Source: an uncultured Verrucomicrobiae bacterium (GTDB taxonomy: Bacteria; Chlamydiota; Chlamydiia; Chlamydiales; Rhabdochlamydiaceae). From it: 64,000 nt of DNA. This document shows, piece after piece, positions 19 to 64,000 of the stretch; the first letter of the stretch is position 1, and the number at the start of each line of letters is the position of its first letter. The DNA lies in NCBI GenBank assembly GCA_963718565.1, contig OY970364.1, positions 2,080,001-2,144,000 of the forward strand, in the 5' to 3' direction. Made by a program: the position numbers and the translations under genes. Below the pieces are notes generated by a model. That model saw nothing but the letters and a program-made list of their open reading frames with translations. It made no database searches and was not told the DNA's origin.

Positions 19-996
19 TTACTTCTTTTCCTCAGGAGGTCTACGCTGTATTTCACCAGATATTTCTTGGTCTTCAATAGGGATGGGTTGCAATAGCGAC
101 TTGAGGCCTCCGCGTTTTTTTAGGATAGGATAAAACTTCCAGAACATCCACCCGACAATCAGGGCAAAAACGATTGCGCAAATCATGAGGAAGAAAAAAA
201 TAAACCGGAATCTGCTCGCTGAGCTTTTGGTCATCACAATAGACCAGATGCTCACATATTCTTTAGCTTTGGGTTCGAGGGCCTCAGTGGACGGTACCAG
301 GCTGATATCAGTAAAGCGCGAACGGTCGGAAATCACTGTAACATCATTGATGTCGAGGCCGGTGATACTTCCAGAGACGAGCCGCTTAATTTTCGTCACG
401 AGATGGCTATTGGGATCATCGAGAATTCCCTGATGCTTGACGTAGACGGCTGCCGTGATTTTTTGCGTGGCGGCTGCAGCGGCTCCCGGAACAGCCGGGG
501 TTGTAGATTCCACAGGAAAAGAGAGCTGAACATCGGCATCGATCACCCCATCGATTTTACGGATCATATTAGCAAGTTGTTGGGCCAGTCCTGCTTGATA
601 GCGGATCGTTTCCTCTTTATCTGAGGACATCAACCCTGCTTTAGCAAAAAGATCTAAGAGGGTTGTTCCCTTCTTCCGAGGGAGACCATTTTGATTGAGG
701 ATTGCCATTGCTTCGGTCGACTTCCCGGGCTCAACGGAAATATTGAATTTAGCGCCCTCCGTTGCCGCCATTCCTGGTGCTGCGCTGACAGAGGCGATTT
801 TTTGTGCAGGAATCCCTTTGCCTGCAAGAAAGACGACGATTTCATTGGCTTCTCTTTCATCGACATCGCTGACAATCACCATGTTGCTTTCACAGCCTGT
901 CAGCAACAGTAATGCGCATAAGAAAGAAAAGAGGATCATCAAACGCCTGGAAGAGGAAAGACGCGAATAGATTGAAGATGAAGGGCAGTTTCCCAT
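19..996 (-). CDS. sctJ: Type III secretion inner-membrane ring lipoprotein SctJ/CdsJ
   Basis: Lipobox LLLTGC, EREANEIVVFL, GLPR, IDGVIDADVQLS, C-terminal TM helix. Confidence 0.95.
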   Translation of the reverse strand: MGNCPSSSIYSRLSSSRRLMILFSFLCALLLLTGCESNMVIVSDVDEREANEIVVFLAGKGIPAQKIASVSAAPGMAATEGAKFNISVEPGKSTEAMAILNQNGLPRKKGTTLLDLFAKAGLMSSDKEETIRYQAGLAQQLANMIRKIDGVIDADVQLSFPVESTTPAVPGAAAAATQKITAAVYVKHQGILDDPNSHLVTKIKRLVSGSITGLDINDVTVISDRSRFTDISLVPSTEALEPKAKEYVSIWSIVMTKSSASRFRFIFFFLMICAIVFALIVGWMFWKFYPILKKRGGLKSLLQPIPIEDQEISGEIQRRPPEEKK

Positions 997-41741: not shown

Positions 41742-41757
41742 GCTAAGCTCGATATTT

Positions 41758-41802: not shown

Positions 41803-42377
41803 TGTACATCTGAATTGGTGTCGTTGACGTTTCACTTAATAGATGTCGGCAGCACATTTTTAACATCCGGCGTGGGAAAATCATAAAACCGCACAGAAAA
41901 ATGCCGTAATATTGCCTTAGTTGGTAATTTCTCACCTTTGCCATCAATCAATCTCAATCACCAAAAATCTCTAGAAAAAATTTGCATCTCCCAATAGACT
42001 TTGATGATCTTGGTTGATTTAAGGTCATTCAAGGAAACGGGCGGAATCGACCTTGCAAGACTGGCCAACTGCTGATTCATTATGAAGCTTTTTAATACGC
42101 TCTTCGACACAAGGATAACAAGGTTGCTTTTTCATAAAGTTTATTGGAAAAGTAATTGGGATAATCTTATCAATTCTCTTTTGCCGCATGAACCTGATTG
42201 GGAGGTCGGGGAACACTTGATTGTGACGCCAGCCACAAATAAGGCTCGAGGTAATAGGCACCGCCTTAAAAACGATAAATGTAGTCATAAGGAGCTCTTT
42301 GCATATCTCTCATGGGATGCAGTTGGGAGATTCGTGGATATCTGTCGGTTAGATCAGGAAGTCAAAGAGCGTAAAGT

Positions 42378-42612
42378 CGCATAAAATCGCGCTTTTGGCA
42401 CCTATCGCCTTGGCGGCGGCTGCCTTCGGCCCCGGTTCGCTCTTCGCTCACCTGCTTTGCTACTTACGAAGGTTCCCCAGACCTTCTCGTGTCTTCGCAG
42501 CCACTTATCCAAGTATGCTTCACCGCCGCCAACCGAACCCGCTGTGCGGATTCTGGCAACAGGCGCCAAAATCATCGATTTTCTGCTGGTGAGGAGTTTT
42601 GCAATTCCCTCT
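42378..42612. mobile_element. MITE family A copy lacking most of the left TIR
   Basis: Near-identical to 34389-34623. Confidence 0.85.
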
Positions 42613-42685
42613 TAAGCAATCCGAATCTCCAAATGCTTACCCAATGCAGTAACAGCCATAACCAGCGACTTCAAGCTACAGCTCT

Positions 42686-42859
42686 TATACCGAAATGAAC
42701 TCAAGATTTGGTTTTTGGCTACGTCGGGCAGCCACTGTATTTGAGCCCACCTGCATCGCACAACTTATTCAAGTTGTGCTGCTTCGGCGTCGCATACGCT
42801 GGCTCAAATTCAGGGCGCCTCCTTGCCAAATTCCCAAATCTTGAGTTCATTTCGGTATA
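42686..42859. mobile_element. MITE-like element family C
   Basis: TIR TATACCGAAATGAACTCAAGATTTGG / CCAAATCTTGAGTTCATTTCGGTATA; inverted copy 62372-62545. Confidence 0.9.
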
Positions 42860-42993
42860 TACTCTAGAAAATTGAAGTCTGGAGAGGATTGAGTTCAATT
42901 GTTTGGAAATTGTCGTTAATTCGCTTTTTCAGCATGTCTTTTAAATTAATAACGCCAGTGTTGAAAAAATCTCTAATTTTCTCAGTAAATTCA

Positions 42994-44294
42994 CAGGGCC
43001 ATTTAACTAAAATGTTTTGACATTTTCGAACAGAAAAATGTTGCCAAAATTCCCTTTAAGTACCCACCACCGAAAGTTGCTGCGCGCCTTACGGAGGCGA
43101 GCCCCCTTTCTGGATCTACAACTGCAGCCATGTTCATAGCCAAACGTCGAAACAACCCCATGTTCTCCGCACTATTCCCTCTATCCGTCAATGCATAATC
43201 CTCTTCAAAAATCACATCAGCTACCCAATGGCATTTGTTTTCTATGCTCCAGTGCTGTCGGGTCCATTTAGCAAAATCTTTGGCAGATGCTCGACGACTC
43301 GAAATATATAGCCGTCTAAATACCTCATTGGCAGTAGATCCAAGTTTTTGCCTCGTGGACCTTACTTCGATGAGACAGACTAAGTTTTTCCATTTGCCCG
43401 CATTTGGCAACCAGTCCAGGTCCTCGACGACTCGTACTTCTCGAATGTCGATTCGACCATGGCCTTTATCTACTTCCTGGTGAAACGAATGGGGGACTTC
43501 CTCCCATTCGACTGCGTGAGCTTGATCAAAAAAATTCTCCATTTCAGCGCACAGCGTTGGCTGGTTGTCCTTAACAGCCAGCAGATAATCTGCCTTCGCA
43601 TCAACGATTTGTTCTGCCGATTCGGCTACGGTGAAATGTGCATCTCCTGAAATAATCGCCCCCTCTACATTCACTTGCTCCAAAATGATTGGTAACGTGC
43701 TCTTTTCGACTGTTTTATTTGGGACCTTTTCCACGGCAAGACATAATCGATCCTCCGCTGCGAATAGCTCCACTACGTGTGTGACACCGCCTAGGAAATT
43801 TGCGCCTTTCATCCGTTTACCATCGATCGCCAATAGCTGATCGCGCAATGAAGCAGGAATTTTGCTGAACCATTTTTGCAAGTAGTGCTTGAGCGCACCA
43901 GGGGGTGTTTTCACTAAAAACCACCAGAGCGCTCCATGGGAAGGTGCTGAGAGCTCCTCACCTAGCAGAGAAGAAAACCACTCCTCCTGCAGAGAAACAT
44001 ATTCAGCGATTTCCTCAATCGTATTGCATCCACAAAAGAATCCGCAGAGAATAACAAGAGTCAAATACCAAACTGGATATAAGACACGTTTTTGATTACG
44101 TCGATAATCAGGGAAATCTGCAAACTCTCCCTTGACGGTTTCCGCGAATACACGGGCATCAAAATTCTTACTAGCTTCTAGGATTGTGGCGTCGATTGGC
44201 TTACGGCGTGACATAATAGGTCCTCCAAATTTGAGGAATTTATTATGCCATCTTAGCTGATCTGGTATCAAAAATTTTTAGTTAAATGGCCCTG
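42994..44294 (-). mobile_element. Intact ISAs1-family insertion sequence
   Basis: TIR CAGGGCCATTTAACTAAAA; 10-bp target duplication AGTAAATTCA at 42984-42993 and 44295-44304. Confidence 0.95.
43003..44214 (-). CDS. ISAs1-family transposase
   Basis: AIDGK, LAVKDNQPTL, DKGHGRI, RQHWSIENKCHW. Confidence 0.95.
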   Translation of the reverse strand: MSRRKPIDATILEASKNFDARVFAETVKGEFADFPDYRRNQKRVLYPVWYLTLVILCGFFCGCNTIEEIAEYVSLQEEWFSSLLGEELSAPSHGALWWFLVKTPPGALKHYLQKWFSKIPASLRDQLLAIDGKRMKGANFLGGVTHVVELFAAEDRLCLAVEKVPNKTVEKSTLPIILEQVNVEGAIISGDAHFTVAESAEQIVDAKADYLLAVKDNQPTLCAEMENFFDQAHAVEWEEVPHSFHQEVDKGHGRIDIREVRVVEDLDWLPNAGKWKNLVCLIEVRSTRQKLGSTANEVFRRLYISSRRASAKDFAKWTRQHWSIENKCHWVADVIFEEDYALTDRGNSAENMGLFRRLAMNMAAVVDPERGLASVRRAATFGGGYLKGILATFFCSKMSKHFS

Positions 44295-45774
44295 AGTAAA
44301 TTCATTGAATTTTGAATACAGTGTATTATAAGTAACACACTCTCTCATAACTTTCCATAAACGCTCAATAGCATTCAAATTTGGGGAATACGGAGGTAAG
44401 TAGTGTATTTGAATTTTGGTTTGGCTATCCAAATATTTTTGCACTTCCTTATTCTTGTTTGATCTGCCGTTGTCTAAGATTAAGTGGATTTTTTTTGCAT
44501 CTGTATTAGCCGCTAACGTTTGGAGAAAATCGACCGCACTTGCAGCATCCACAGTGCTATATTCCTTCGTCACGACTTGCATTGCAGTCAATTCAATGGC
44601 ACCAATAAAATGCAATCGCTCTTGCTTAGCGGTTGTTCCTAATGTCTTTATTTCGTTTTTTAGGATCCACCCAGCCACAGACTGGCTCTGATACTCAGGG
44701 TGTACAGCATCTCCAAAGAAAATTTTCTCGCCTTCTTGGAGACCGGCTTTCAATTCATTGTATTTTTTAAGGAACGCAGCTTGTTTTTCGGGATCGAGCT
44801 TTCCTGGTACTTTGATTGGATGTTTATAAACAAATCCATGCCTCTTCAACCAATTTGTCATACCAGCCACAGTGTATTTCACTTGATATGCGTCTAGAAC
44901 GTAGAGACAAATTTTGCTCATTTTGAGATACGTTATTTGACTCAAATGTCTCCTCAGCGCATCTTCTTGGTCTAGGGTTAACTTGGAGGCCTTTCCCAAA
45001 TGTGGATCATTGATAGTTTTTTGCTTGGCATCGTATTCTCTTTGATAATCATAAACGGACGACTCGCTAATTCTTAAAATCGCCGCTATTTCCCCTGGAC
45101 TGTGGCAATCATCCCTACCTAAAATGACGCATACACGGTTCCGTTCGTTGACATCTCTTGTTTTTTTTACAAGCTGTTCTAAATATAAACGCTGCTCATT
45201 GGACAACTTTTGCATAGAAGCATTATCCACTATCGCTGAAATATTTTTTAGGGAAATTTAAAATTTTACAGAATCCAATCATGAATAGTATATACGGATC
45301 CAATATTCGATCAATTGCAGCTCGACTTGTATTTAACATTTTTGCAAATTGAGATTTTGTGATTTTTTGTTTTTTCATTTCTTGCTCAAGTTGAAAAGCA
45401 ATGATCCTTTTAATGGCTTCAGCGGTGCATTCTTCAAGCATTCCTTCTTCTTTGAGGAAATCATCAAAACCTGATTACTGCTTTTCTGGCATCAACCTCG
45501 GGCACGGCAAATCCTTGACGTCGGATAAGGATTCCGCCGAAAAAAATGGAAAAGTCCATTTGCATTTTGCTCAGATTGAACTCTTAGTTGCTAAAGACTG
45601 AATGCTAACCCGTTTTCAGGACGACGACGCACGGCCAGTGCGCATCGCCTGAAAGGATTCCAGTTCCCCTCCAAAATTTTCAGAGAAAATTTTGTCTGCG
45701 TTGTTTTTTTCTGTTCTTACAATTTCCCTTTGGGAATCGCATGAAGAATTTATCATAAGAGGACCAGTGTTCAA

Positions 45775-46956
45775 TCAGAGTTCCAGGATGGGCAGAGAGG
45801 CAAGCTGTCTCCAGCTCAGGGTTGTTCCTTGAGAGCGGGATTGTTTCTCCTTACCCGCGTAAACAATGTAGCTATTTGAAGGATCGTTGTCTGCTAATTG
45901 ATTCCATCTTGTAAGGCCTGTAAAAAAATCGGAGTTGATTGTCTCTGATGACTTGATCTCAATGGGTACGAGTTTTTCTCCATATTCGAGGAGACAGTCC
46001 ACTTCATGGCCCGCCTTATCACGCCAGAAGTAGAGATTGGGCATAAGCCCCGCATTGAAACGTTGTTTCATGAGATCGGAGAGGATCATCGACTCAAAAA
46101 GTCCCCCGCGCAGGTAATGTCTCATTAGGTCTTTTGGAGATCGAATGGAGAGAAGGTGGCAGGCAATCGCACTGTCATAGAAATATAGTTTGGGAGTTTT
46201 GATGACGCGTTTGTTGAAGTTTTTGTGATGAGGCTGCAGGAGGAAGATGATATAGGTAGCTTCAAGTAGAGAAAGCCAAGAACGCACAGTATGCGCTGTA
46301 ATTCCGCAGTCATTTCCAATCGATGTTAAATCCAAGAGTTGACCTACCCGTCCTGCACAGAGTTGGAGAAATTTTTGAAATAGAGAAAGATCCGAGATCT
46401 GTTTGAGATGGCGTACATCCCTTTCAACGTATGTCTGGATATAGCTTTGAATCCATTCTTGGGGTTCGATTTTTTTTGCATAGAGAGGGGGATAAAAGCC
46501 TTGAAATAGGATCTTTTCCATCTCTTTCGGGAGAAGGGAAGCTTCGTCTAGTTCCTCTAGACTTAAAGGTAGAAGAGTAACAAGAGCGATTCTTCCGGCA
46601 AGGGTCTGGCTAATATGGTGGTTTAGCAGGATGTTTTCCGATCCTGTTAAAAGAAAAAAACCAGGTTTTTGCCACTCATCGACATGGGCTTGGATGTATG
46701 ACAGGAGATTGGGGACACGTTGAATTTCATCGAGTATAACACCTTTTTCCTCTTCTAATGCCTTAAGAAACCGCCGAGGGTCTTCCTCTGCAAAACGGCG
46801 CGTATCAAGCTCTTCTAAATTGATGTATTTGTAAGAAGGGAAAAGAGCTTTTACAATGGTTGTTTTACCCGATTGCCTCGGACCCAAGATTCCAACTACA
46901 GGAAATTGAGCGCTGAGTTTTTTAAGACGCGAGGCGATTTTTCTCTTAATGAACAT
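45775..46956 (-). CDS. AAA_14 ATPase with DUF4143 / C-terminal PD-(D/E)xK-like domain
   Basis: GPRQSGKTT, LDEIQ, LTGS, KTPKLYFYD, EVD...PIEIKS. Confidence 0.88.
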   Translation of the reverse strand: MFIKRKIASRLKKLSAQFPVVGILGPRQSGKTTIVKALFPSYKYINLEELDTRRFAEEDPRRFLKALEEEKGVILDEIQRVPNLLSYIQAHVDEWQKPGFFLLTGSENILLNHHISQTLAGRIALVTLLPLSLEELDEASLLPKEMEKILFQGFYPPLYAKKIEPQEWIQSYIQTYVERDVRHLKQISDLSLFQKFLQLCAGRVGQLLDLTSIGNDCGITAHTVRSWLSLLEATYIIFLLQPHHKNFNKRVIKTPKLYFYDSAIACHLLSIRSPKDLMRHYLRGGLFESMILSDLMKQRFNAGLMPNLYFWRDKAGHEVDCLLEYGEKLVPIEIKSSETINSDFFTGLTRWNQLADNDPSNSYIVYAGKEKQSRSQGTTLSWRQLASLPILEL

Positions 46957-47333
46957 GCCAACCCTTTTAAGGACAATTATGTAATTCGATTGCATAATTG
47001 TCCACATTCTCGCTAAGCCATTCTTTTTAAGCTATTTAAAATACAACGAAGATGATTTTGGTTCACTTGAAAATTGTAAAAATTGGAAATTGTTGATTTC
47101 CTAAAAATGTCTCAAAAACACCGTAATTTTAACGGAGTAGCCAATTTCTCAAGCCTGAAATAGATCACCTTCGATTACCCAGAATTCCTTTATCGATCTT
47201 GATTGGGCACGGATCGAAATGGTCTTCAACTTTTGCCAGAAAGAATCGAAACGGCTCTAATCCTGATTTAGAGTCTTTAATCGAAACAAAAAATGAACTC
47301 CTGCACTATTGGGAGCAGAGTAATATCTCCGTA

Positions 47334-48137
47334 TTATGCTCTTGCAGGTTTTTGCAGGTGGGCAAACAACGGAGCGTGCTCGTTTGGGACTGTCTGTAAT
47401 TGCTCTTCATCCATAAGTAAAAAATCGGGATTGGAAAAATCCTTAAACCAGCGGCGCGTGTAGCTCATGTAAAGCAAAGAGCGCATATGGTCGGAATGGT
47501 TAGATCCTCCTGCATGAAAAGTTCTATAGTCCCAAAAGTAACAACTTCCTATGGGGCCGCAGAGCAAATGTTTAACATAAGAGTGCATTTGCTGATCAAT
47601 AGGGTAGGTGCGGTGGGAGCCAGCCCAAATTTTTGTTGGTCCATTGATTAGATCGATGTCAACTAGTGGCACAGCAAATGTGACCGCAAATGTCGGGATC
47701 GCAGAAGATGTATTTGTGTTTTCTTCGAATAGCGGATAGTAGTCTGCATGAATGTGCTGGTCTGTGGAACCAGGTAGTGCAGTGAAAGAACCCAAGCTAC
47801 TTAAGATAAAATGGGCCCCGAGGATTTCCTTCATCAGTGGCATCAAAATTGCATTCGCATAGAGTTCAGGGTCATTAAAAGGGGGAGCGAAGGGAATTGG
47901 TACAATATAGCGCCTATGGCTGACTTGGGTGCCACCGCTGAGGGTCATCTCTTCTTCGTTAAATTGCAGTTGGCTTGCATAGATAGCAGCCAGCTCTTGA
48001 ATAAATTCCTTCGGATAAAGATTTTCAATTTTTAGAAAGCCATGGTTCTCAAAAATGTGCTTGGCCATTTTCAAAGTGTTTGGATGGAACTTCTGCTCTA
48101 AAATTTCACTTTCACTAAGGGTAATGCTTGTAATCAT
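47334..48137 (-). CDS. Phytanoyl-CoA dioxygenase (PhyH) family Fe(II)/2OG dioxygenase
   Basis: QHIHAD, NGPT..WAGSH, HAGGSN. Confidence 0.85.
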   Translation of the reverse strand: MITSITLSESEILEQKFHPNTLKMAKHIFENHGFLKIENLYPKEFIQELAAIYASQLQFNEEEMTLSGGTQVSHRRYIVPIPFAPPFNDPELYANAILMPLMKEILGAHFILSSLGSFTALPGSTDQHIHADYYPLFEENTNTSSAIPTFAVTFAVPLVDIDLINGPTKIWAGSHRTYPIDQQMHSYVKHLLCGPIGSCYFWDYRTFHAGGSNHSDHMRSLLYMSYTRRWFKDFSNPDFLLMDEEQLQTVPNEHAPLFAHLQKPARA

Positions 48138-48357
48138 TGCAGTTCCTGGGCTTATAACCTGAATTTTAGATTTATAGTCTTTTTTGGCCTTGTTGCGTAA
48201 ATAGATAATTTTACCACAGAGCCGTCTTTTTTGCGATATTAACAAAAACATTAAACGTTAGAGGGAATTGCAAAACTCCTCGCCGCATAAAATCGATTTC
48301 CGAATCTCCAATTAAAGAGAAATTGACACAATGGCTGCAAAAATATAGCGTTGGGTT

Positions 48358-50648: not shown

Positions 50649-52946
50649 TTATTTGGATTCCGTAACTTTCTCGATTACAGATTCCGTAGTACTTCCGCCT
50701 TTAGATTCCGGAATCCTTTCAACGAAGCGAGGAAAGCCAGCTGCCTCAATTAACTGTCCAAGAATTTTTATCTTGTTATTAACTTCCGATGCAATAGCTT
50801 CAATTTCTTTAAGAGATTTTTCGGATAATTGTTTGGACATTTTTGGCTTCACAATTTGGTAAGAAAATTCGATGGAATGCGGATAAGTTGCCAGCTCGCC
50901 TGGATACGCTCTGCGTACAGTCGTGTATGTGTAAATGTAACAAAATGTCGCATCTATGCCTGAATCAACCTGGTCGGCACGAACGCTATGCACCTCAAAA
51001 TATGTACTCCCTAATACAATGTAAACACAGCGCGCTGGCTGTGAAACTTCTTTGCCTGTCTCTTTTTCTTCAATCGTTGAGAATATTTTAACATCTTTTT
51101 TAATAATGCTCTCTTTCGATGAATGGATGAGTTTATAGAGTTCTTCCAAATTAGAAATTGGCTCCTTGATGTATTTATGATTTAGAGCTCGATAAAATTG
51201 GAGCATGAACTGAATTGTTATCTCAACGCCAGAATGTTCCTCTCCATTGGATTTGGCAATGTTTTCCAAGCGGGAGATAACCCTTGGGTTGGTCAATAAT
51301 AATGCCTTATTAAACTCCGAAAGTGTTTGTTTGTTTTCAGTCAATGGATTTAAGAGGCTCTCTAAAAAATTAAAAATGCGAGCATGTCCTTCCAATGGAT
51401 CTTTAGGTGGGGGCAATTCTGACATAAATTTCTGGCTGAATTGAATGGCATTTTTTAAAAAATCATCCAGGAATGTTTGATCACCGAAAAAAGCCTTTGT
51501 GCTGAGGAGAGCCATGGACTCATCACCATAGTCCTTCAAGTCTTTGCCATATTGTTCCATTTTTTCTAAGTTATTAGAGTCGTCAGGCTTTGGAATTCTT
51601 CTAGGTTCCAAAAGAACATTGCGTTCCGGATCGATATAAATGATCGATGCTGTACTGACCATGTGCTGCCAATAGCGAAGAAATTCGACATCATATTTTT
51701 GGCGCTTTAGAGAATTGTCAAATTCCTTAAGGCAATCGATACAGAAAAGAGCATGGGGTTTATTTCTAGCTTTAAGCTCGTCTGAACGAAGTCGAATAAT
51801 GGTCTGTTGAGCTTTTTTATTTGCATCAATCCAAAGAATTTCAACCACTTGTATTTTAATTGCCCGAGCTATTGAGGTATAAACGAGGTTCCTATAAACT
51901 CCATCATAATCTGTTTTCAAAATTTTCCTTATCTCGTTTTCATTTTTATCAGATTTTTTAAGTTTTTTGAAAATTTTAAATAAATTTTTTTCTATTTGTG
52001 CAAGTGCTTGTTTTTGTACATTTGAGAAATCATCTGGCAGTTCATAATTCTCGGCAATGCGCTCCAAATTGTTCGCCAATTCAAGCATCACTTCTCGATA
52101 ATGGTGTAAAATTTTTATCTCATTTTTCTTTTTTTCTAGGTCAGAATTTTTTCCTTTTTCAATTGCTAGGTCCAGCCCCGGAATGAACATTTTGACCCGA
52201 TCATCATGACGACACTGTTTAAAATTGATAATTAGAAAATCTTTTAATTCATTATTGACAGTTTTTAAACAGGATTCGACATCCTCGAAAAAAGAGCTCT
52301 GCTCGAGTAGCTGTCTTAAATCTTGGAGAAAATCAATTTTAATATCTTTAGATTTTCCAGATGTGTTGGATTGTTTTACATGGATAAGGTCGTAAATTGT
52401 TTCTGCGGAGCTCAGCATCTCGTTATAGTTTTTATCGATTTCGCTGATTTGTTGCATGTCTTGGGGAACCTCTACCGCAGCTATAAAACTAGACGTGCAC
52501 GTTTTGAATTTCGCGATATATGTCAATTTCAATTTGGTAAGTTCAGGGGTATTAAAATCGCGATATTTGAAGCCTCTTGGCATTAATTCAAAATTTTTTC
52601 TTTTGGTGGCCCTTTCGCTTTCACTTTCGGATGTAGATCCACTGCCTGATTTGAGTCGAAGAGTGCCCACAGTGTTACTTTTTTCGGACGCTCTCTTTTG
52701 TATTGTCTTTGACGGGTCTCTGTCTCTTTTTTTAACATCGGATGTGATATCGCCTGTGGGTGGCATGTTTTTTCTTTTTCGGCCTGACCGCTGGCCAGTT
52801 AAGGCTGTTTTTGCGACATTTTCTGCCTGTGTTTTTGCAACGTTTTCTGTATTTTCCGTCTGTATTGGCTGCTGTTCGGCTGAATTTACCGATGATATTG
52901 TGAGAGGTTTTTTTTCTTGTGTAGGTGAAAGTTGTTGAGTAGTCAT
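50649..52946 (-). CDS. Orphan 765-aa protein, candidate T3SS effector
   Basis: Long AT-rich ORF, Ser/Thr-rich N-terminus, basic clusters RSGRKRK, KKRDR, KRK; SD AGGAGG. Confidence 0.7.
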   Translation of the reverse strand: MTTQQLSPTQEKKPLTISSVNSAEQQPIQTENTENVAKTQAENVAKTALTGQRSGRKRKNMPPTGDITSDVKKRDRDPSKTIQKRASEKSNTVGTLRLKSGSGSTSESESERATKRKNFELMPRGFKYRDFNTPELTKLKLTYIAKFKTCTSSFIAAVEVPQDMQQISEIDKNYNEMLSSAETIYDLIHVKQSNTSGKSKDIKIDFLQDLRQLLEQSSFFEDVESCLKTVNNELKDFLIINFKQCRHDDRVKMFIPGLDLAIEKGKNSDLEKKKNEIKILHHYREVMLELANNLERIAENYELPDDFSNVQKQALAQIEKNLFKIFKKLKKSDKNENEIRKILKTDYDGVYRNLVYTSIARAIKIQVVEILWIDANKKAQQTIIRLRSDELKARNKPHALFCIDCLKEFDNSLKRQKYDVEFLRYWQHMVSTASIIYIDPERNVLLEPRRIPKPDDSNNLEKMEQYGKDLKDYGDESMALLSTKAFFGDQTFLDDFLKNAIQFSQKFMSELPPPKDPLEGHARIFNFLESLLNPLTENKQTLSEFNKALLLTNPRVISRLENIAKSNGEEHSGVEITIQFMLQFYRALNHKYIKEPISNLEELYKLIHSSKESIIKKDVKIFSTIEEKETGKEVSQPARCVYIVLGSTYFEVHSVRADQVDSGIDATFCYIYTYTTVRRAYPGELATYPHSIEFSYQIVKPKMSKQLSEKSLKEIEAIASEVNNKIKILGQLIEAAGFPRFVERIPESKGGSTTESVIEKVTESK

Positions 52947-53243
52947 CTTATCCTCCTAAAGAAAATTTTTTGTTGACTAGCATAGATTTTTTATTTTAAA
53001 AAAGTACAGGAAATAGTTTTCGCTTCTTCTTAAGAACTTGATTTTCAAGTCATTAAACTGCAAATTTCGGTTTTCAAAAGTTTTATTGAAAAAAATCGCG
53101 CTTTGTTTCACGCTTTTTGACACCTGGATTTTCAGGTGACATTCTTTTGAAAGATCATCCTCCGAGTGTGGGATTTTCAAAACTCTCCCCGTTATCCAGG
53201 TTTTTTCAGTAAATTTTCAAAAATTAAAAAGAAGGTGGCGTAT

Positions 53244-54305
53244 ATGGCTCCGTCTTTTATATCTTCTCGTCTAAGTTCTCCAAACTATATACCTAGCATG
53301 CTGCTAGGCCAACAAACCGTCTCTGAGATCCAAACTTCCAAAGATGAAATTGACGACGATGCGATTTGGGAGATGACACGCAGTGTATTTGAAGGTTTGG
53401 AATGTCCATTTCCGGAAGGAAATAATCCCCATCTCGATAGTGCCGAACAGACCAATCAACTGTGGGCTCAGGAAATGGGAATTCCTTCCTGTAAAAAATT
53501 TTTGCCGGCACTACTAATGGCGGGCGCTTACCGTTATTGTTCTGCTGACATGCTTGCCATTTTTACTCATCTTTTGACTCTGATCTTTATTTATGATGAT
53601 ACAGTGGAAAAAATCCTCCATAAAGATCCCTCACTACTTCAGGAGTTTAACCGGCGGTTCATACAAGCTTTGGAAAGTGGAGGGGTAGGACAAGGTGAGA
53701 ATGACCCTTTAATCAAAGCAGCTGCTCATGTGCACAAAAAATTGAGGAGTATTGCTTCGCAGGAATGGTGGGATCGTTTTATGCGTGATGTGAAAGAATA
53801 TTGCGAGGCTAACTATTGGGAGTCTACTAAGATGGGCATTCCGGAAATGGAAACTTATCTCGAGAAACGCCCCTTAGGAGGAGCCGTTTACATCTTTTTT
53901 GATCTCTGTGAGTTGGCAGAAGGAGTTCAGATCAAAGATGAGGTGTTTAATAGCAAATATTTTCAAGATGTTAGGCTCGCATGTAATAATCTTATCTGGC
54001 TGTCCAATGACATTATCTCTTTTCCAAAAGAAACTAAGAATACTGGTAACAATATTATTCATATTTTCCAGAAAAACACACAATGCAACTTGCTAGAAGC
54101 AATTGAAAAAACTAAATCTTATTACAATAGGGAATTAGTGAAACTGCAGTCTTTGCGTGAGAATAGGCCATCCGAGTATGGAGATCATGAAGAAAAATAC
54201 ATCCATGGGCTTCTTTCTTGGGTGCGGTCTAATGGAGAATGGTCGCTTAAAACTCCAAGATATCAAAAACCCCAATCACCCCATGTAACGTGGCAAAAAG
54301 TTTAA
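53244..54305 (+). CDS. Class I terpene synthase (bacterial sesquiterpene cyclase-like)
   Basis: YDDTVE Asp-rich motif, YLEKR sensor Arg, NSE motif NDIISFPKE, WSLKTPRY. Confidence 0.88.
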   Translation: MAPSFISSRLSSPNYIPSMLLGQQTVSEIQTSKDEIDDDAIWEMTRSVFEGLECPFPEGNNPHLDSAEQTNQLWAQEMGIPSCKKFLPALLMAGAYRYCSADMLAIFTHLLTLIFIYDDTVEKILHKDPSLLQEFNRRFIQALESGGVGQGENDPLIKAAAHVHKKLRSIASQEWWDRFMRDVKEYCEANYWESTKMGIPEMETYLEKRPLGGAVYIFFDLCELAEGVQIKDEVFNSKYFQDVRLACNNLIWLSNDIISFPKETKNTGNNIIHIFQKNTQCNLLEAIEKTKSYYNRELVKLQSLRENRPSEYGDHEEKYIHGLLSWVRSNGEWSLKTPRYQKPQSPHVTWQKV

Positions 54306-54414
54306 AATTGCACACAAAAGAGCTGTGTTGAAGTCTGCCTGCAACATCGTGGGCAGACTTCTGGTTTCTTAGCACTTGTGAAAAAATATCTTTTTGCAAA
54401 TGGTAGCAGATTAG

Positions 54415-56169: not shown

Positions 56170-57439
56170 AGGACCGGCTCTTTTCGAGGCCAGAAGTATT
56201 GATAAATATTATCCTTTGCCTGATGGCCAAACACTGCATGTGCTGGATCACATTGATTTTGTCATCTATCCCAACGAAATTGTCGCGATCATCGGCCCTT
56301 CAGGATGCGGGAAATCGACATTCTTAAGGATTTTAGCGGGTCTCATTCCTCCAACAAAAGGTCAAATTTTTCACCATGGCCGGGAATTAAAAGGATTAGT
56401 TCCTGACATGTCCATGGTTTTTCAAAGCTTTGCTCTTTATCCTTGGATGAGTGTGAAGCAAAATATCGAAGTTGTTCTAAAAGCTGCTCATATTTCTGTA
56501 CAAGAGATGGAAAAAAAGACGAAAGAGGCTATCGCTTTAATCGGGCTTGAAGGATTTGAAAATGCTTACCCCCGAGAGCTTTCTGGGGGAATGAAGCAAC
56601 GTGTGGGTATTGCGCGCGCTTTGGTGCTTAACCCTGAAATGCTTTTCATGGACGAACCGTTCAGTGAAGTCGACGCTTTTACCGCAGAGGTGCTCCGAGA
56701 AGAAGTTTTGAGAATCTGGGCAGAGAAAGAGCTTCGCTTAAGCTCCATTCTCTTTGTCTCTCATGATATTCATGAAGTGGCCTTTATGGCGGACCGCATT
56801 ATTGTTTTAGGAATGAATCCTGCAAAAGTGCGTGCGATCATAGAAAATAAAATCCCAAGACCGAGAGATTATCGTTCTGAAGAGTTTTTAAAATTAGTCG
56901 AACAGTTGCACGATACTTACGGTCACATCAAGCCCCCCTTACAAAAAGCTCCGAAAAAAGAAAAGATAGGGCCTCTTTTGCCTGTGACCAATGATGAGAT
57001 TCTTGGACTGTTAGAGTATTTGAAAATGCATGGGGGGTCGCAGAATATTTTTACGATCGGAGCTCATAGAAATCAACATTTTGACAAAGTCACAATCGTC
57101 TTGCAGGCTGCCGAATTATTGGATTTTATAGAGATCGTTCATCGGACAGTGACCCTCTCTAAAAAGGGGAATGAATTCTTGAAGGGAGGGATGGAAACGC
57201 GTCAACGTCTTTGGAGGGAACAGCTATTGTCCATTCCTCTTTTTATCAAGACTTGCGAACTGTTGAAAAACGCCCCGAACAAATCGCTGGGCCGTGAGCA
57301 GCTTATGTCCTTTTTAACTCGAGAGCTTCCCTTTCAGAATGTGGTGAGCCAATTACACACTTTAGTTCGTTGGGGCTATTATGGGGGATTATTTACTTAC
57401 CATAAGAAAGCAAAACAACTGACTCTGTTCTCTATTTGA
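56162..57439 (+). CDS. NitT/TauT-family ABC ATPase with C-terminal AAA-associated domain
   Basis: GPSGCGKST, ELSGGMKQRVG, MDEPFS, WGYYG. Confidence 0.9.
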   Translation: MSKGPALFEARSIDKYYPLPDGQTLHVLDHIDFVIYPNEIVAIIGPSGCGKSTFLRILAGLIPPTKGQIFHHGRELKGLVPDMSMVFQSFALYPWMSVKQNIEVVLKAAHISVQEMEKKTKEAIALIGLEGFENAYPRELSGGMKQRVGIARALVLNPEMLFMDEPFSEVDAFTAEVLREEVLRIWAEKELRLSSILFVSHDIHEVAFMADRIIVLGMNPAKVRAIIENKIPRPRDYRSEEFLKLVEQLHDTYGHIKPPLQKAPKKEKIGPLLPVTNDEILGLLEYLKMHGGSQNIFTIGAHRNQHFDKVTIVLQAAELLDFIEIVHRTVTLSKKGNEFLKGGMETRQRLWREQLLSIPLFIKTCELLKNAPNKSLGREQLMSFLTRELPFQNVVSQLHTLVRWGYYGGLFTYHKKAKQLTLFSI

Positions 57440-58445
57440 AGCGGATTCCATGGAGTTGAGAGAGCTTCTTCGTCGCTTCCAATAAAGGCTCTAACCCTTC
57501 TTCTTGCATTGCAGAAATAGGGAAAAGTGTTTCTTTTGAGAAAGGGTAATTCTGATAAAAGTTCTGCAAATGTTCTTTCGCGCCTTCCTGGTCGATTTTG
57601 TTTAAAGCAACGATGAACGGCTTTTCAAGCATTTCTGGCTGATAGGCTTTCAACTCATTGCGCAGCACTTTGAAATCTTCGACCGGGTCCCTCCCTTCGA
57701 AACCTGAAATATCAATAACGAAAAGGAGAGCAGAGGAGCGTTCGATGTGCCGCAAAAAAGCCAACCCCAACCCCTTGTTTTGGTGGGCATTTTCAATGAC
57801 GCCGGGGATATCAGCGACAAGGACGCGTGAAAAATCGGGAAACTGAACATAGCTTAAGTTGGGATAGAGCGTTGTAAAGGGATAGGCGCCAATTTTAACA
57901 GGGACATGGGTGATTTTTGACATCAAAGTCGACTTACCCGCATTGGGCATGCCGATCAAGCCGACATCCGCGATCAATTTGAGTTCGAGCTCCACTTCGC
58001 GGACTTGGCCTTCTGTGCCAGGAGTACAGGTATTTGGGGCTTGGTTTGTTGGCGATTTAAAGCAGTGGTTGCCCTTGCCACCTTTACCGCCTTGACAGAT
58101 GAGAAACCGCTGGCTCTCTTCTGTGAAGTCAAAAAGCGTTTCACCAGTCACCGCATCTTTGACGAGCGTCCCATGAGGGACGGTAAGAATGAGGTCTTCT
58201 CCATGGCGGCCTTTTTGCAAATTGCCTCCGCCCGGCAGGCCATTTTCAGCATGGATCAAACGGCGATTCCGAAAATTCTCCAAGGAGAGGACGTGACCAT
58301 TGGCCATGAAGATAATCGAGCCTCCTTTGCCGCCGTTACCTCCGACCGGGCCTCCTTTGGGAATATATTTTTCTCGTCTCCATGCGACGACGCCGTTGCC
58401 GCCTTTACCCGCGCGAAGAGTGATTTTAACTGCGTCCACAAACAT
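57432..58445 (-). CDS. obgE: GTPase Obg/CgtA
   Basis: Gly-rich Obg fold, GMPNAGKST, DIPG, NKID. Confidence 0.97.
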   Translation of the reverse strand: MFVDAVKITLRAGKGGNGVVAWRREKYIPKGGPVGGNGGKGGSIIFMANGHVLSLENFRNRRLIHAENGLPGGGNLQKGRHGEDLILTVPHGTLVKDAVTGETLFDFTEESQRFLICQGGKGGKGNHCFKSPTNQAPNTCTPGTEGQVREVELELKLIADVGLIGMPNAGKSTLMSKITHVPVKIGAYPFTTLYPNLSYVQFPDFSRVLVADIPGVIENAHQNKGLGLAFLRHIERSSALLFVIDISGFEGRDPVEDFKVLRNELKAYQPEMLEKPFIVALNKIDQEGAKEHLQNFYQNYPFSKETLFPISAMQEEGLEPLLEATKKLSQLHGIRFK

Positions 58446-58560
58446 TTTTTCGTATTAACCTGAATAAAAATGCCACTGAATTGTTAACCAGCTGTTGCAG
58501 AGGGTTTCATGTTCAGAGGTGATGATTCGTTAGTCTTACGAGGAGTTTTGCAATTCCCTC

Positions 58561-58812
58561 TTACATCCGTGGAAGCACAGCGACGTAAGTGCGATTAGAC
58601 TTGCGATACGTGACAACGCCGTCTATCAGGGCATAGAGGCTGTCATCACGTCCGACGCCGACATTTTTACTCGGACGCCATTTTGTGCCACGCTGTCTGA
58701 CGAGAATGCTTCCCGCAGTAACAAACTGCCCACCTGTCGCTTTGATCCCTAAACGCTGCGCTTTAGAATCGCGTCCGTTACGGGTTGAGCCTTGGCCTTT
58801 CTTGTGTGCCAT
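58561..58812 (-). CDS. rpmA: 50S ribosomal protein L27
   Basis: [23 protein letters not shown]. Confidence 0.98.
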
Positions 58813-58826
58813 AATGCAAAACTCCT

Positions 58827-59138
58827 TTAATCGATAATCTCTGTAATTTTTATGCGCGCATAACGTTGACGATGTCCAACTTTGCGGCGGAATGGTTTAC
58901 GTTGTTTGTATTTGAAAGCAATTTCTTTTGGACCTTTCACCTCTTGCATCAATTCTCCTTGAACAGAAGATTTAGCAACATGGGGATTGCCAATCTTGAC
59001 ATTCCCTGCGTTATTGATGAAGAGCACATGCTTAAATTCTACTTTTTCGCCGGCTTTCACATCGAGCAATTCGACATCGATAACGTCGCCTTTTTCAACT
59101 CGGTATTGCTTTCCGCCAGTTTCGATAATCGCGTACAT
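58827..59138 (-). CDS. rplU: 50S ribosomal protein L21
   Basis: [18 protein letters not shown]. Confidence 0.98.
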
Positions 59139-59420
59139 TTGACCTCCTGAAATTGTCACAAGTTTAAGGAAAGCACACAGGCATGCCCTTCCTGGAGAGG
59201 AAAAAAGAAAGCATGATAAATGATGCTCTGCTCAAAGTCAAATCCAAATCCCAAAACCTTCATATCTAATTGCATACGCCATTTGATTCCCTAGATATAA
59301 ACCTCAGTAAAAAACGAACATCAGTTTTTCTGTTTTTCGATAATTTTATTACTTCAAGCCATTTAAAATTAGAATATTGTATTTTTAATTAAACAAAGCA
59401 ATTTGATTAATAATTAAAAT

Positions 59421-59702
59421 ATGGTTAATATAACAATTAAGTCGGTACTGCAAGACAGTGGAGAGGATTTCCATTCAAAACTTCCTTATTTAGAGAAGTT
59501 TGAAGCGAAGCCGTCAATGCGAGTGTTCGAGGGAAGGATGAAACCGTTCAATAAAAGGCTGAACAAGCGCAAGGCATCTAAGGTGACGTATAAGACTCAT
59601 CGTAAACACAACCATCCTCCTCTCCACGATGAAGTTAAAGAGATCACAGATGGGGTCACAGCGGTAAGGCCCGAAGACATCAAGATTCATCAGCATTATT
59701 AA
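59421..59702 (+). CDS. Small hypothetical protein
   Basis: 93-aa ORF after an AT-rich promoter-like region. Confidence 0.4.
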   Translation: MVNITIKSVLQDSGEDFHSKLPYLEKFEAKPSMRVFEGRMKPFNKRLNKRKASKVTYKTHRKHNHPPLHDEVKEITDGVTAVRPEDIKIHQHY

Positions 59703-59865
59703 TCTCAGGAGGAAAGGGATATGCGCAACAAGGCAAAAAGGAAAACATCCAGAAGCAAAAAAGCTGTCAAAATGACTGAAGAGAAGAGCGGTGCCTGGAA
59801 AAGCTTTTGGAACCGCTATTGCAATCTGTAATGGCAAGAAAGCCAACAGGAAAAGGCGCAAAAAG

Positions 59866-60717
59866 CTAGGTTTTAGCACAGCTTCTTAAGCGCTGTTTTT
59901 TGTGAAGCAGGCTTAAAGTATAAAACGCGGCGGCTACAAGTGAAATCGTTGCCCCTGGTGGCCAATTAAGCTCATAGGAAAAGTATATCCCCAATACTGT
60001 AAAGAGAGCGCCAAATAAGATCGCGAAGATCATCATGCGCGCTAGCGTCTGTGTGTAACTTCCTGCAATAGCAGCAGGGATTGCCAGCATCGTGATGACA
60101 AGGATCGCACCCACAACTTGGATCAGTAGGACGACAGCAATAGCCACAAGGCAAAGGAGGAGAAGATAAAGGGTGTGAACCGGTACTTGTTGCAAGCGAG
60201 CCTGATCTTCGTCGAAACAAATTGCTAAAAATCTGCGGTAGAAAAGTGTCACAGCTGCCGCAATCAACACATCTAGGGATAAAAGCAGGGCGAGATCGCT
60301 ATGGCTGACCCAGAGAATATTTCCAAAAAGAAAATTCAAGAGTTCGACATTATATCCCGGAGTCAGGGCAATAAAAATAACTCCAATGGACATTCCCGTT
60401 GCCCAGATTGCTGCGATCACCGTGTCTTCTCTTTCTTTGTATTTCAAATGGATCCAGCCCATCAATAGTGCTGAGAGCAGCCCCGCGGCCAATGCCCCTT
60501 GAAGGGGAGTCAAAAAATCAAGGCCATAGGTGCGGCGCAGCCAAAGAAAGAACCCCATCCCTCCCAAGACAGAATGGGCGATGCTCCCACTCATGGATAC
60601 TATCCTTTTGACGACAACGAACGAGCCGATGATCCCGCTAGCAAAAGAAGCGGCGAAACCCGCTGCCAAAGTCATCAGGAGAAAGGGATTTTCAAGGAGC
60701 GCATGAAAGAAATCCAT
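59866..60717 (-). CDS. Zn/Mn ABC transporter permease (ZnuB-like)
   Basis: IAHSVLGG, LFGNIL, VGAILV, PPGATI. Confidence 0.92.
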   Translation of the reverse strand: MDFFHALLENPFLLMTLAAGFAASFASGIIGSFVVVKRIVSMSGSIAHSVLGGMGFFLWLRRTYGLDFLTPLQGALAAGLLSALLMGWIHLKYKEREDTVIAAIWATGMSIGVIFIALTPGYNVELLNFLFGNILWVSHSDLALLLSLDVLIAAAVTLFYRRFLAICFDEDQARLQQVPVHTLYLLLLCLVAIAVVLLIQVVGAILVITMLAIPAAIAGSYTQTLARMMIFAILFGALFTVLGIYFSYELNWPPGATISLVAAAFYTLSLLHKKQRLRSCAKT

Positions 60718-61448
60718 CAGGGGAAAAAATGGCGTTTAGAGGTTAAAGGAGTATGGTATAAGCCAAGGGCAAAATGCTCACAAACTTCTTGAGTTTTTAA
60801 GCTGGTGACACGCCGTTGGACGCAGAGAAGTTTTCCGACCTTGTCGACAATCGTTTGCAAGTCATGTGTCACCATCAGGATGGTCATCGTTTTATTTAAC
60901 TCAGAAAGTTGGGCATAGATATTTTGTTCGGCCTCTATATCGACATTGGCCGTCGGCTCATCGAGGAGCAGTACACTGGGCTCATCGACGATTGCCCGAG
61001 CAATCAGAGCTCGTTGTGCTTCGCCTCCAGATAGAGTGCCGAAAGATGCTTCTGCTTTATGTGCAAGCCCAACACGCTCTAACGCAACCTTGGCTTTTCG
61101 TTTTGCTTCTGCGGGATAGGTTCCCCACCAGGAGAGTTTTCTTAAAGAACCCATCATGATCACTTCGAGTACGGAAATCGGAAAATCACGATCAAAGCGC
61201 ATCGCCTGCGGGACATATCCGATCAGGTGGCGCATTTCCTCAGGGGGGCGTCTAAAGAGCAGGATTTCCCCTTTTTGTGGGCGCAAGAGGGCCATCATGA
61301 GTTTGAGCAGAGTGGTCTTTCCACCTCCATTCGGCCCGAAAATTCCCACAAACTCTCCTTGAAAAATTTCGATATTGACATCTTCGAGCGTCGGCACGCT
61401 GTCGTAATGAAAAAAGAGATGTTGAATTTCGAGGATTGCTTCCTTCAT
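60717..61448 (-). CDS. Zn/Mn ABC transporter ATPase (ZnuC-like)
   Basis: GPNGGGKTT, IGYVPQ, LSGGEAQR, LDEPT. Confidence 0.92.
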   Translation of the reverse strand: MKEAILEIQHLFFHYDSVPTLEDVNIEIFQGEFVGIFGPNGGGKTTLLKLMMALLRPQKGEILLFRRPPEEMRHLIGYVPQAMRFDRDFPISVLEVIMMGSLRKLSWWGTYPAEAKRKAKVALERVGLAHKAEASFGTLSGGEAQRALIARAIVDEPSVLLLDEPTANVDIEAEQNIYAQLSELNKTMTILMVTHDLQTIVDKVGKLLCVQRRVTSLKTQEVCEHFALGLYHTPLTSKRHFFP

Positions 61449-62329
61449 TGTGCGATCACTGTTGCAATGGACAGTAAATTTTCCGAAAAGTTCTCAGCAT
61501 AAGGGTCGACCATATGTGTTGGCAGCCCCAAGGATTGCGCTAACAGTTCAGCTCCTTTATTGCTATATTGAGGCTCTGTAATCACAGCCTGGACAGAATA
61601 ACGCTTTGCATGAGTTAGAATTTCTGTCACATGTTGAGGCAATGGCTCTTTACCTTCAATCTCAATCGAAAGTTGGATCAGATGATAATCATGGCAAAAA
61701 TAGCCAAAAGCCGGATGCGAGACTAAAATGGCTCTTCCTTTCATCGGTTCGAGTAGATGAGTGATTTCTTTATCTAAGCTGTCGAGCTCATTTAAAAAAC
61801 TGTGTAAATTGGCCTCAAAGCTCATCTGTTTTTCGGGAAGGAGGCTAATGAGCGCCTCGGCAATCTTTTTTGCTTGATGTTTGGCAAGGCTAGGGCTCAG
61901 CCAAACGTGCAGGTCTTTTCCTTCATCATGGCTATGATGGCAATGCGTATGTTCTGTAGCGATTTCCTGTTCTTTGCAGAGCGAAAGTAAGTGCGTTCCT
62001 TCTGTCATGTCGACGATCCGGATCGGTTTTTTTCTGTCCTGAAAAAATTTCAACACTTTTTTATCGAAAGCTTCGCCGAGATAGATCCAAAGAGAGGCAT
62101 TTTGATGGCGTTGTACTTCTTTGGGCGTCGCTTCGTAAATATGTGGATTAGTCCCGGAAGGAACAAGGGTTTCGATTTCGACAGCATCCTGAGCGATTTT
62201 TTGAACGAAATAGACATAAGGCGGAACGCTGACAAGGACTATCGGTTTCCCGCTTTTTGGCCTTTCACTTTTTCCACACGAGACGATGGAAAGAGAAATG
62301 ATGATTGATAAGACCCATCGCATTGTCAT
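61445..62329 (-). CDS. Zn/Mn ABC substrate-binding lipoprotein (ZnuA/TroA-like)
   Basis: Lipobox IVSC, PHIYE, His-rich loop, DLHVWLSP. Confidence 0.92.
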   Translation of the reverse strand: MTMRWVLSIIISLSIVSCGKSERPKSGKPIVLVSVPPYVYFVQKIAQDAVEIETLVPSGTNPHIYEATPKEVQRHQNASLWIYLGEAFDKKVLKFFQDRKKPIRIVDMTEGTHLLSLCKEQEIATEHTHCHHSHDEGKDLHVWLSPSLAKHQAKKIAEALISLLPEKQMSFEANLHSFLNELDSLDKEITHLLEPMKGRAILVSHPAFGYFCHDYHLIQLSIEIEGKEPLPQHVTEILTHAKRYSVQAVITEPQYSNKGAELLAQSLGLPTHMVDPYAENFSENLLSIATVIAQ

Positions 62330-63078: not shown

Positions 63079-63999
63079 TTAGTTTTGCAATTCCCTCGGA
63101 TGACTGTCTTTTTTGAGCTGCTCCTGTAAATAGTTCCGAATCGCTTCGGCTTTTTGCGAAGAAGTTGAGCCCTGCCTTGTCCCATGAATTATCCCATGAA
63201 AGGCATGTTCTCCGCATCCCCAATAGTCATTGGGGTTGGGGATAAGGTTGAGGCGTTTAAGGATTTTGTATAATTCCCCATAGATTTCATTTCTTGCTCT
63301 TTTTGGCATTCTTGAGAATCGTTCCATAGCTTGATCGAAGATTTCAAAATCGTCGCTTTCGAGTTGGTTCGCAAGTGCATCAAAAACCGTATTGTACTCT
63401 GCCTTAAAATCCCAGACCTTGATTGTTTCAACGTTCGAGTCTGGGTACACGCGTGAATAAAGCTTGCCATCGGAAACGGCATGGAAACTCGAACAGGTAA
63501 TATATTCTACTTCCTCCCTACCAAATGTTTGTATGCGTTCTCTTGTGTTTAAATCCCAGATTTTGATCGCACTGTTGCAACCGTAGTGAGAGAAAGAATA
63601 GAGGTTGTCATCGGAAATCACAAGGAAGTAAATTCCACAAAGTCTATCTTCTATTGTTCCTATGTGAGTTTTTGTCTTTAAATCCCAGATGTTGATTATT
63701 CTTCGATAGCAATTATCACTGCGAGAGTCAGAATAATAAAGTGTGCCATCGGAAGAAACGGCAAGAGAACAGACCTCGTCATGCCCCTCAAGTGTTGCCT
63801 CACAAGAATTTGTCTCTAAGTTCCAGATTTTGATCTTTTTGTCCCAAGCGCTAGAGATGAGTGTTCCATCATCGGAAAGAGCAAGGCGGGATACTTCTTC
63901 CTCATGCCCACTCAGGGTTCCTATGCAAGTTTTTGTCTCTAGATCCCAGATCTTGATCTGGCCGTTCCAAGAGCTAGGACAAACGAGCTTTCTACCCGA
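63079..63999 (-). CDS. WD40-repeat protein (partial, runs off the window)
   Basis: Open frame to window end: IKIWDLE..TLSGH, IKIWNLE..TLEGH, INIWDLK, IKIWDLN, IKVWDF. Confidence 0.9.
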   Translation of the reverse strand, partial: SGRKLVCPSSWNGQIKIWDLETKTCIGTLSGHEEEVSRLALSDDGTLISSAWDKKIKIWNLETNSCEATLEGHDEVCSLAVSSDGTLYYSDSRSDNCYRRIINIWDLKTKTHIGTIEDRLCGIYFLVISDDNLYSFSHYGCNSAIKIWDLNTRERIQTFGREEVEYITCSSFHAVSDGKLYSRVYPDSNVETIKVWDFKAEYNTVFDALANQLESDDFEIFDQAMERFSRMPKRARNEIYGELYKILKRLNLIPNPNDYWGCGEHAFHGIIHGTRQGSTSSQKAEAIRNYLQEQLKKDSHPRELQN

Positions 64000-64000
64000 A

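Follow-up and report, generated by a model that had tools for sequence, protein, structure and literature searches.

A complete class I terpene cyclase gene is present in a chlamydial genome and belongs to a clade of cyclases that carry a Ser-rich N-terminal extension and, in most of the genomes concerned, lie directly beside a homologue of one orphan gene, here called partner A. The gene lies in the 64,000-nucleotide stretch of DNA analysed here (the window), which is part of genome G000. The enzyme is most likely an active, Mg2+-dependent class I cyclase, predicted to act on FPP, and we see an even chance that it is exported and, together with partner A, uses host FPP to make a terpene that is the useful product. 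The features of the locus are as follows.

47334-48251: PhyH (Pfam)
50649..52946, minus strand: partner A, a 765-aa orphan, divergent from the cyclase gene and 297 bp away
53232..53238, plus strand: Shine-Dalgarno-like AAGGTGG, just 5' of the cyclase ATG
53244..54305, plus strand: class I terpene cyclase gene, 353 aa, of the chlamydial DDxxE clade
53244..53342, plus strand: disordered Ser/Pro-rich leader (residues 1-33), candidate type III signal
53355..53393, plus strand: folded helix before CPFP (residues 38-50), in the extension and not disordered
Residues 54-57: CPFP, start of the cyclase domain
Residues 61-63: NPH, start of the cyclase domain
53595..53609, plus strand: DDTVE (DDxxE), Asp-rich metal motif (residues 118-122)
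53856..53870, plus strand: YLEKR (residues 205-209)
54006..54032, plus strand: NDIISFPKE, NSE metal motif (residues 255-263)
54240..54263, plus strand: WSLKTPRY, WxxxxxRY motif (residues 333-340)
54330..54361, plus strand: terminator-like 13-bp hairpin 3' of the cyclase gene, matching the consensus

The frame at 53244-54305 encodes 353 residues with zero internal stops. Its start is backed by the AAGGTGG upstream and by homologues that begin at the same position, and the frame stays open upstream as far as a GTG at 53166. No sigma-70-like promoter was found in the intergenic region. The hairpin at 54330..54361 suggests that the cyclase is not co-transcribed with the ABC permease; three terminator-like sites were found against 1.4 +/- 1.2 in shuffles.

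The protein scored 113.1 bits against Pfam PF19086 (cut-off 23.7), which confirms that this chlamydia does encode a class I cyclase, as the initial annotation had proposed. The closest PDB sequence was T-muurolol synthase (E 1.7e-34). An AF2 model built on an alignment of 131 sequences (mean pLDDT 91) showed the alpha-helical terpene synthase fold, and Foldseek matched it to T-muurolol synthase with prob 1.0 and TMq 0.79-0.80. Class I cyclases are defined by DDxx(D/E), a diphosphate-sensor Arg, an NSE triad and WxxxxxRY; all four were found where the initial annotation had placed them (D118, D119 and E122; R209; N255, S259 and E263; W333, R339 and Y340), as was the CPFP...NPH domain start. YLEKR was invariant in the 131-sequence alignment, and its Arg209 is taken here to be the diphosphate-sensor Arg. 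Every top structural and family match was a sesquiterpene cyclase, and the nearest characterised enzymes produce cadinane-type or related sesquiterpenes. The protein fell below the NCBIfam equivalog cut-offs for T-muurolol, delta-cadinene, epi-cubebol and isoafricanol synthases (80-84 bits against 400-500). By profile, predicted fold and motifs it is a class I family member that fits no named synthase, and the identity of its product cannot be called, 30% identity being too low even for a product class. Neither the cyclase nor partner A has a CaaX end.

A survey of Chlamydiota, suggested at the outset, found PF19086 matches in 10 of 400 genomes (one further genome was unscored); searches by group gave matches in 2 of 129 genomes in the family of G000, 2 of 19 in its genus and 5 of 73 in family f22. 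A tree of 147 sequences was built from the best 150 representatives, less those shorter than 290 or longer than 420 residues and one duplicate, together with three fusions cut to domains, nine genome sequences and three from Methylococcaceae. One clade of 34 took in 8 of the 10 genome cyclases (FastTree 0.96; SH-aLRT 91.1). The G375 cyclase fell outside it, that of G443, found later, fell inside, and the G307 match (PF19086, 27.7 bits) was left out of the tree. The clade is chlamydial as far as its nine placed genomes show, the other 26 members being sequences without genome placement. The nearest named relatives of the cyclase, at about 30% identity, are from Methylococcaceae, Nostoc and Roseiflexus. 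Members of family f22 are present in both halves of the clade, a spread that points to exchange among chlamydiae or to an old duplication followed by loss. A viral origin was rejected: no relative was found in viral contigs with the patterns used, and the only match was an Orpheovirus fold at 15% identity.

The Glu of DDxxE was present in 33 of 34 clade domains versus 13 of 113 others. The catalytic residues have been retained across the clade (D118 33/34, D119 34/34, R209 34/34, N255 33/34, E263 33/34 and R339 33/34) although identity is 20-30%. P0008 is a tandem double cyclase whose second domain has degenerate metal motifs. A second kind of class I cyclase, outside the clade and with DDxxD, is found in G375 (L045:5599-14465), without partner A and inside a complete mevalonate operon.

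The initial annotation described about 50 residues of Ser/Pro-rich leader. The leader is present, but its unstructured part covers only about 33 residues and residues 38-50 form a helix. The pLDDT of residues 1-31 was below 50, a value that the thin alignment there may partly lower; the helix, on the other hand, was modelled with confidence, and its W42 and F49 are invariant among six close homologues. Leader residues 2-21 contain six Ser, a number reached by 15 of 1557 predicted proteins. Five metagenomic homologues (44-66% identity), including a fuller reading of L025, have kept the extension, and four of the five start at the same position as the cyclase. With the extension defined as the residues before Pro55, and once a duplicate and three internal domains (four rows) had been set aside, at least 30 residues were found in all 30 stand-alone clade members versus 10 of 113 other cyclases (medians 48.5 and 11), and the Ser fraction of the N-termini was 0.163 in the clade versus 0.065 in other cyclases; since clade sequences are related to each other, the p values of clade contrasts overstate. 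What distinguishes the clade from other cyclases is that it has the extension and that this is rich in Ser; the extension is a trait of the whole clade. The N-terminus of one clade member, P0036, resembles a classical Sec signal peptide by eye, which, if real, would mean export by another route.

The genome encodes a type III secretion system (T3SS), with SctJ, SctN and SctW/CopN over cut-off and further matches to SctL, SctR, SctT, SctU, a CesT chaperone and secretin-like proteins; sctV is split into two pieces in the assembly (G000:C1:58661-60650). The genes sctL, sctR and sctT immediately precede the window, which contains a further gene of the cluster:

19..996, minus strand: sctJ (TIGR02544 over cut-off), in the T3SS cluster that is the presumed export route

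According to the accessible text of PMC2669295, the N-termini of type III effectors are enriched in Ser, Thr and Pro, and Leu and charged residues are scarce. An a priori score built from these features was applied to a proteome of 1557 proteins from simple gene calling, and the cyclase leader scored +6, within the top 2.1%; 20 ribosomal-cluster proteins scored from -12 to -3 and 19 F-box/WD40 proteins from -5 to +7. Within the clade the leaders of G005, G076, G080 and G381 fell in the top 5% and those of G146, G443, G147 and G166 outside it; G147, G166 and P0071 are among the members with poor scores. Clade and non-clade cyclases scored alike (medians 0 vs 0, p 0.37); the Pro-rich domain start of the latter scores by itself. 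A second score was trained on 18 F-box/WD40 N-termini and reached an AUC of 0.97 against 51 controls, which included some transposases, spurious frames and effector-like genes. It placed the cyclase at the 93.6th percentile and again gave no separation of clade from non-clade cyclases (88.7 vs 85.2 percentile); it was dropped as evidence, as the 80th percentile was exceeded by 66 of 113 ordinary cyclases too. The two composition scores thus place the leader in the top 2-7% of the proteome. Seed searches with ankyrin and LRR models gave too few proteins to be of use. Given an active enzyme, the chances that the cyclase is secreted appear about even or slightly better, and the effector reading is a plausible hypothesis.

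An expanded F-box/WD40 family with Ser/Pro/Asn-rich leaders occupies window positions 63079-64000 and about 20 other G000 loci (23 WD40 matches). Elsewhere, a GlgA-GlgB fusion (glycogen synthase and branching enzyme) adjoins the cyclase module at L038:1-4488 in G005 and at L070:10976-16000 in G443, two genomes of different families; no match to the fusion was found in G000.

No IspG, IspH or HMG-CoA reductase was found in G000, and for DXR there was only one 23-bit match over 60 positions; tblastn with the mevalonate proteins of G375 recovered IDI alone. The genome retains IspF, a type 1 IDI, an FPP synthase over cut-off and a second polyprenyl synthase, and G005 showed the same pattern for the families searched. 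As G000 is 95% complete, any single gene loss could be an assembly gap; as an explanation for the loss of both pathways this is unlikely, several unlinked genes being absent from two single-contig genomes. IspG and IspH were not found in any of the four genus genomes searched (G000, G001, G003 and G005), and IspF was found only in G000 and G005, which suggests that IPP synthesis has been lost at the genus level. The isoprenoids of G000 are probably host-derived wherever the cyclase acts, because no MEP or mevalonate core was detected and IDI and FPP synthase are kept; the host-derived substrate proposed in the initial annotation is to this extent supported. The cyclase does not track the bacterium's own supply, because, of five carriers, G147 has MEP, G146 and G080 have HMG-CoA reductase, and G000 and G005 have neither. 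The portions of PMC10663253 and PMC13001223 available to us contain nothing on pathway loss in chlamydiae.

The type 1 IDI gene of G000 lies head to head with a gene for a TLC/Npt-family transporter (G000:C1:666816-669021):

L071:6816-7358, minus strand, and L071:7513-9021, plus strand: IDI/transporter pair, head to head

This transporter has 29-32% identity to three other paralogues and is a candidate IPP/DMAPP importer. The isoprenoid importer is described as unidentified in the accessible part of PMC6854040.

These results bear on where the enzyme works. It could stay in the bacterium, draw FPP from the bacterium's own IspA and imported IPP/DMAPP, and release a diffusible terpene as host defence, membrane additive or signal, with the extension as a docking or regulatory arm, perhaps for partner A. 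This location, which we consider rather unlikely, agrees with the FPP synthase, second polyprenyl synthase and type 1 IDI of the genome, with the folded helix that makes up part of the extension and with the mixed leader scores across the clade, and a hydrophobic product would require no secretion of the enzyme. However, the cyclase would then consume imported precursor presumably needed for bactoprenol and quinones, and clade cyclases lie outside precursor operons in nine of nine genomes, whereas the non-clade G375 cyclase is inside a full mevalonate operon. Effector-like genes beside the clade cyclases, namely RasGEF in G076, F-box in L024 and the GlgA-GlgB fusion in G005 and G443, also argue for export.

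The initial annotation made no mention of a conserved partner gene. A homologue of partner A directly adjoins the cyclase in eight of nine clade genomes, from four families, with gaps of a few bp to about 300 bp. The pair is divergent in G005 (which has two copies of partner A) as in G000, and convergent in G166 and G381; partner A lies downstream on the same strand in G146, G080 and G076 (in two pieces in the last) and upstream on the same strand in G147. Pairwise identity among the partners is 12-43%, and leave-one-out profiles recovered the omitted partner at E 1e-7 to 1e-28; a profile lacking all f22 sequences missed the G166 partner, and one lacking both G000 and G005 missed one of the G005 copies. 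The full profile matched 9 of 400 genomes, the eight source genomes and, weakly, G304; such matches are circular, and what carries information is that a word-based first look gave no match in the other 391 genomes. The G304 match (E 9.8e-4) lies in an LRR protein and was treated as chance. In P0050 (1170 aa) a clade cyclase is fused to an N-terminal part that is a partner A (E 5.8e-46), and P0160 (a partner A) and P0002 (a cyclase) come from contigs of equal length (109,859), presumably one and the same contig. The upstream DNA of L024 and L025 is too short to show whether partner A is present.

The exception is G443 (67% complete; found after the partner model was built), where partner A is absent and a different 690-aa orphan, partner B, lies as a separate gene 25 bp before the cyclase (L070:8641-10710). 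In P0013 (60% identity) partner B and the cyclase form one fused gene, which makes this another, independent case of both pairing and fusion. Partner B was rejected as a form of partner A (hhalign prob 0.1), and as a single-protein query it was not found in G000 or in five other carriers.

Partner A comprises an N-terminal polar low-complexity region of about 125 residues, a helical core and a C-terminal alpha/beta part, and gave no Pfam, NCBIfam, PDB-sequence or Atlas match. Its C-terminal 480 residues were modelled at pLDDT 81 as helices with a C-terminal sheet; searched whole, this model had no Foldseek match at E<=0.001, and the best VIA match was Z 6.1 over 63 residues (rmsd 3.1). Such weak or absent matches are no proof that the fold is new. 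Matches to EspG (Z 4.2) and to the MiniBAR Rab-binding domain (Z 5.2 over 171 residues, rmsd 4.8) fell below the tool's stated chance level and were rejected.

The association could still be one of hitch-hiking, in which two effector-like genes without any relation arrived in a joint acquisition and travel as a unit, with no function in common; this question is distinct from that of location and is compatible with a cyclase acting in the host or in the bacterium. The pairing of cyclase with the unrelated partner B in G443 and P0013 and the clustering of effector genes in these genomes (F-box/WD40 runs) speak for it. The tree distances of cyclase and partner correlate (Mantel rho 0.65), yet shared descent alone suffices for this and G146 is placed differently in the two trees. 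We nevertheless regard hitch-hiking as doubtful: adjacency has outlasted four orientations and one fusion while partner identity dropped to 12-20%, no convincing partner A without a clade cyclase was found among the 400 genomes, and the two genes are jointly present in 2 of 19 genomes of the genus.

Taken together, these results are consistent with a cyclase lineage that would have been acquired once by chlamydiae and then patchily kept or exchanged among them. The added leader would serve as a type III signal, and cyclase and partner A would be exported together, the two genes forming an effector module. Once in the host cytosol or at the inclusion, the enzyme would convert host FPP to a cyclic sesquiterpene, with partner A placing it, regulating it or acting with it. 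The product, rather than depletion, may be the point, either as a host-altering signal or as a deterrent protecting the host cell or the inclusion. In its most specific form, that chlamydiae of four families inject the cyclase with a dedicated, occasionally fused partner of undescribed fold as a natural-product effector making a terpene from host FPP, the proposal is tentative, and we hold it with somewhat less than even confidence.

A secreted sink or hydrolase of host prenyl diphosphates, yielding farnesol, farnesene or similar and lowering small-GTPase prenylation or sterol synthesis, appears improbable. The pocket of the cyclase does differ, because P88 stands where relatives commonly have an aromatic residue, and host isoprenoid products fall in Rickettsia infection (accessible part of PMC6854040). 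The RasGEF gene adjoining the G076 cyclase would also suit a sink, but such a neighbour occurs in only one of nine genomes. Cyclases are moreover slow enzymes, which counts against this role. Draining host prenyl precursors, a purpose raised in the initial annotation, is unlikely because G000 itself seems to depend on them and would be harmed.

The initial annotation placed the gene among effector-like orphans. This holds on one side, where the divergent orphan lies, but the downstream genes are ordinary (ABC transporter, obg and rpl27/rpl21). It was also correct that no prenyltransferase is adjacent, but this says little, as FPP synthase is encoded elsewhere in the genome. The link drawn to PhyH did not survive: no homologue was found near the cyclase in eight of eight other loci, and PhyH was rejected as a tailoring enzyme. 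With no prenyltransferase nearby and no linked precursor or tailoring genes, the locus is not a terpene gene cluster. In G443 a TauD-family gene lies 3.5 kb from the cyclase. Both in L042 (G147) and in the window (57432-62329), obg, rpl21 and zinc ABC genes are found no more than about 7 kb from the module; G147 and G000 are of different families and G005 lacks this setting, so that it may be either an ancestral site or a coincidence.

The assembly is a single 2.28-Mb contig, 95% complete with 0.33% contamination, and carries chlamydial markers (the Tsp CT441 model over cut-off, SctJ in the window, a CopN domain and T3SS genes). Window positions 36942-47007 resemble an island, with a tRNA, an integrase, a toxin-antitoxin-like pair, two multi-copy IS elements and an AAA/DUF4143 gene. 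EF-G (window 31700-33317), sctV and several G005 genes are in pieces, probably through sequencing indels. That the cyclase is an assembly chimera, a contaminant or a decaying relic is scarcely credible despite these indels and an island 8-16 kb upstream, given the single contig of low contamination, the intact frame, the conserved motifs, a GC3 of 0.37 inside the range of the same genome's F-box genes, and the synteny that rules out a chimera at the locus (the same divergent partner in G005 and the same downstream permease in L024). Contigs of four sequencing runs gave short pieces, some identical within the cyclase, and were not counted as evidence; no gene junction at the cyclase was bridged among the matches listed.

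In the open-access literature, as far as its accessible text goes, we found neither a class I terpene cyclase described from chlamydiae nor any terpene cyclase described as an injected effector. Five terpene regions were counted by antiSMASH in Chlamydiae (PMC9666466, Data S10): three had a carotenoid and one a squalestatin top match, and for the remaining region, in Waddlia chondrophila, S10B contains no terpene row and the enzyme type is not given. The string 'terpen' does not occur in the main text of that paper as available, nor in that of PMC2878342, where a mevalonate operon is reported. Two terpene precursor clusters are reported in a Hydra symbiont (available part of PMC13229535). New here are the clade, its DDxxE and extension marks, the association with partner A, and the missing IPP pathways beside a cyclase. 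If the enzyme is secreted, small-molecule synthesis from host isoprenoids would join the functions of T3SS effectors, and amoeba symbionts would have a chemical means, open to testing, of changing or protecting their hosts. An enzyme that stays in the bacterium would still represent an unsampled clade, with at most 30% identity to any solved enzyme, that may yield new terpene skeletons and whose partner, supported by a fusion, lacks a clear fold match. A chlamydial genus with neither IPP pathway, in which idi adjoins a nucleotide-transporter paralogue, also provides a candidate isoprenoid importer.

Among known systems, chlamydial GlgA is likewise a metabolic enzyme and reaches the host cytosol (PMC3722199, accessible part), and a GlgA-GlgB fusion adjoins the module in G005 and G443; the secretion of GlgA has been shown and its chemistry is that of carbohydrates, whereas export of the cyclase is predicted and its chemistry is that of isoprenoids. 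In Rickettsia, upstream isoprenoid enzymes are absent, idi is kept and host isoprenoids are scavenged (PMC6854040); G000 similarly lacks upstream MEP/mevalonate enzymes and retains idi but, unlike Rickettsia, has an FPP synthase, and the accessible part of that paper describes no cyclase. The Orpheovirus terpenoid synthase is also a class I fold from an intracellular parasite (TMq 0.66). Its hosts, which we take to be amoebae, presumably supply the prenyl diphosphates that it uses. Unlike the cyclase, this viral enzyme (BFVD A0A2I2L5I9; 15% identity) is a minimal 278 aa without leader or partner and involves no secretion step. The closest comparison is with (+)-T-muurolol synthase of Roseiflexus castenholzii (TmS; PDB 9HQD, 9HQM) and, with it, the 1-epi-cubenol, 10-epi-cubebol and delta-cadinene synthases of PF19086. 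The cyclase shares with TmS the alpha-helical class I fold (rmsd about 1.9 A at the TMq given above, 30% identity), and the Asp-rich, Arg sensor, NSE and WxxxxxRY motifs align. It scored 83.5 bits against the delta-cadinene synthase equivalog cut-off of 400, and differs from the TmS group in several respects: its Asp-rich motif is DDxxE rather than DDxxD, its N-terminus is longer by about 45 residues, a segment near residues 80-85 is shortened, its host organism is obligately intracellular and it has a conserved orphan partner.
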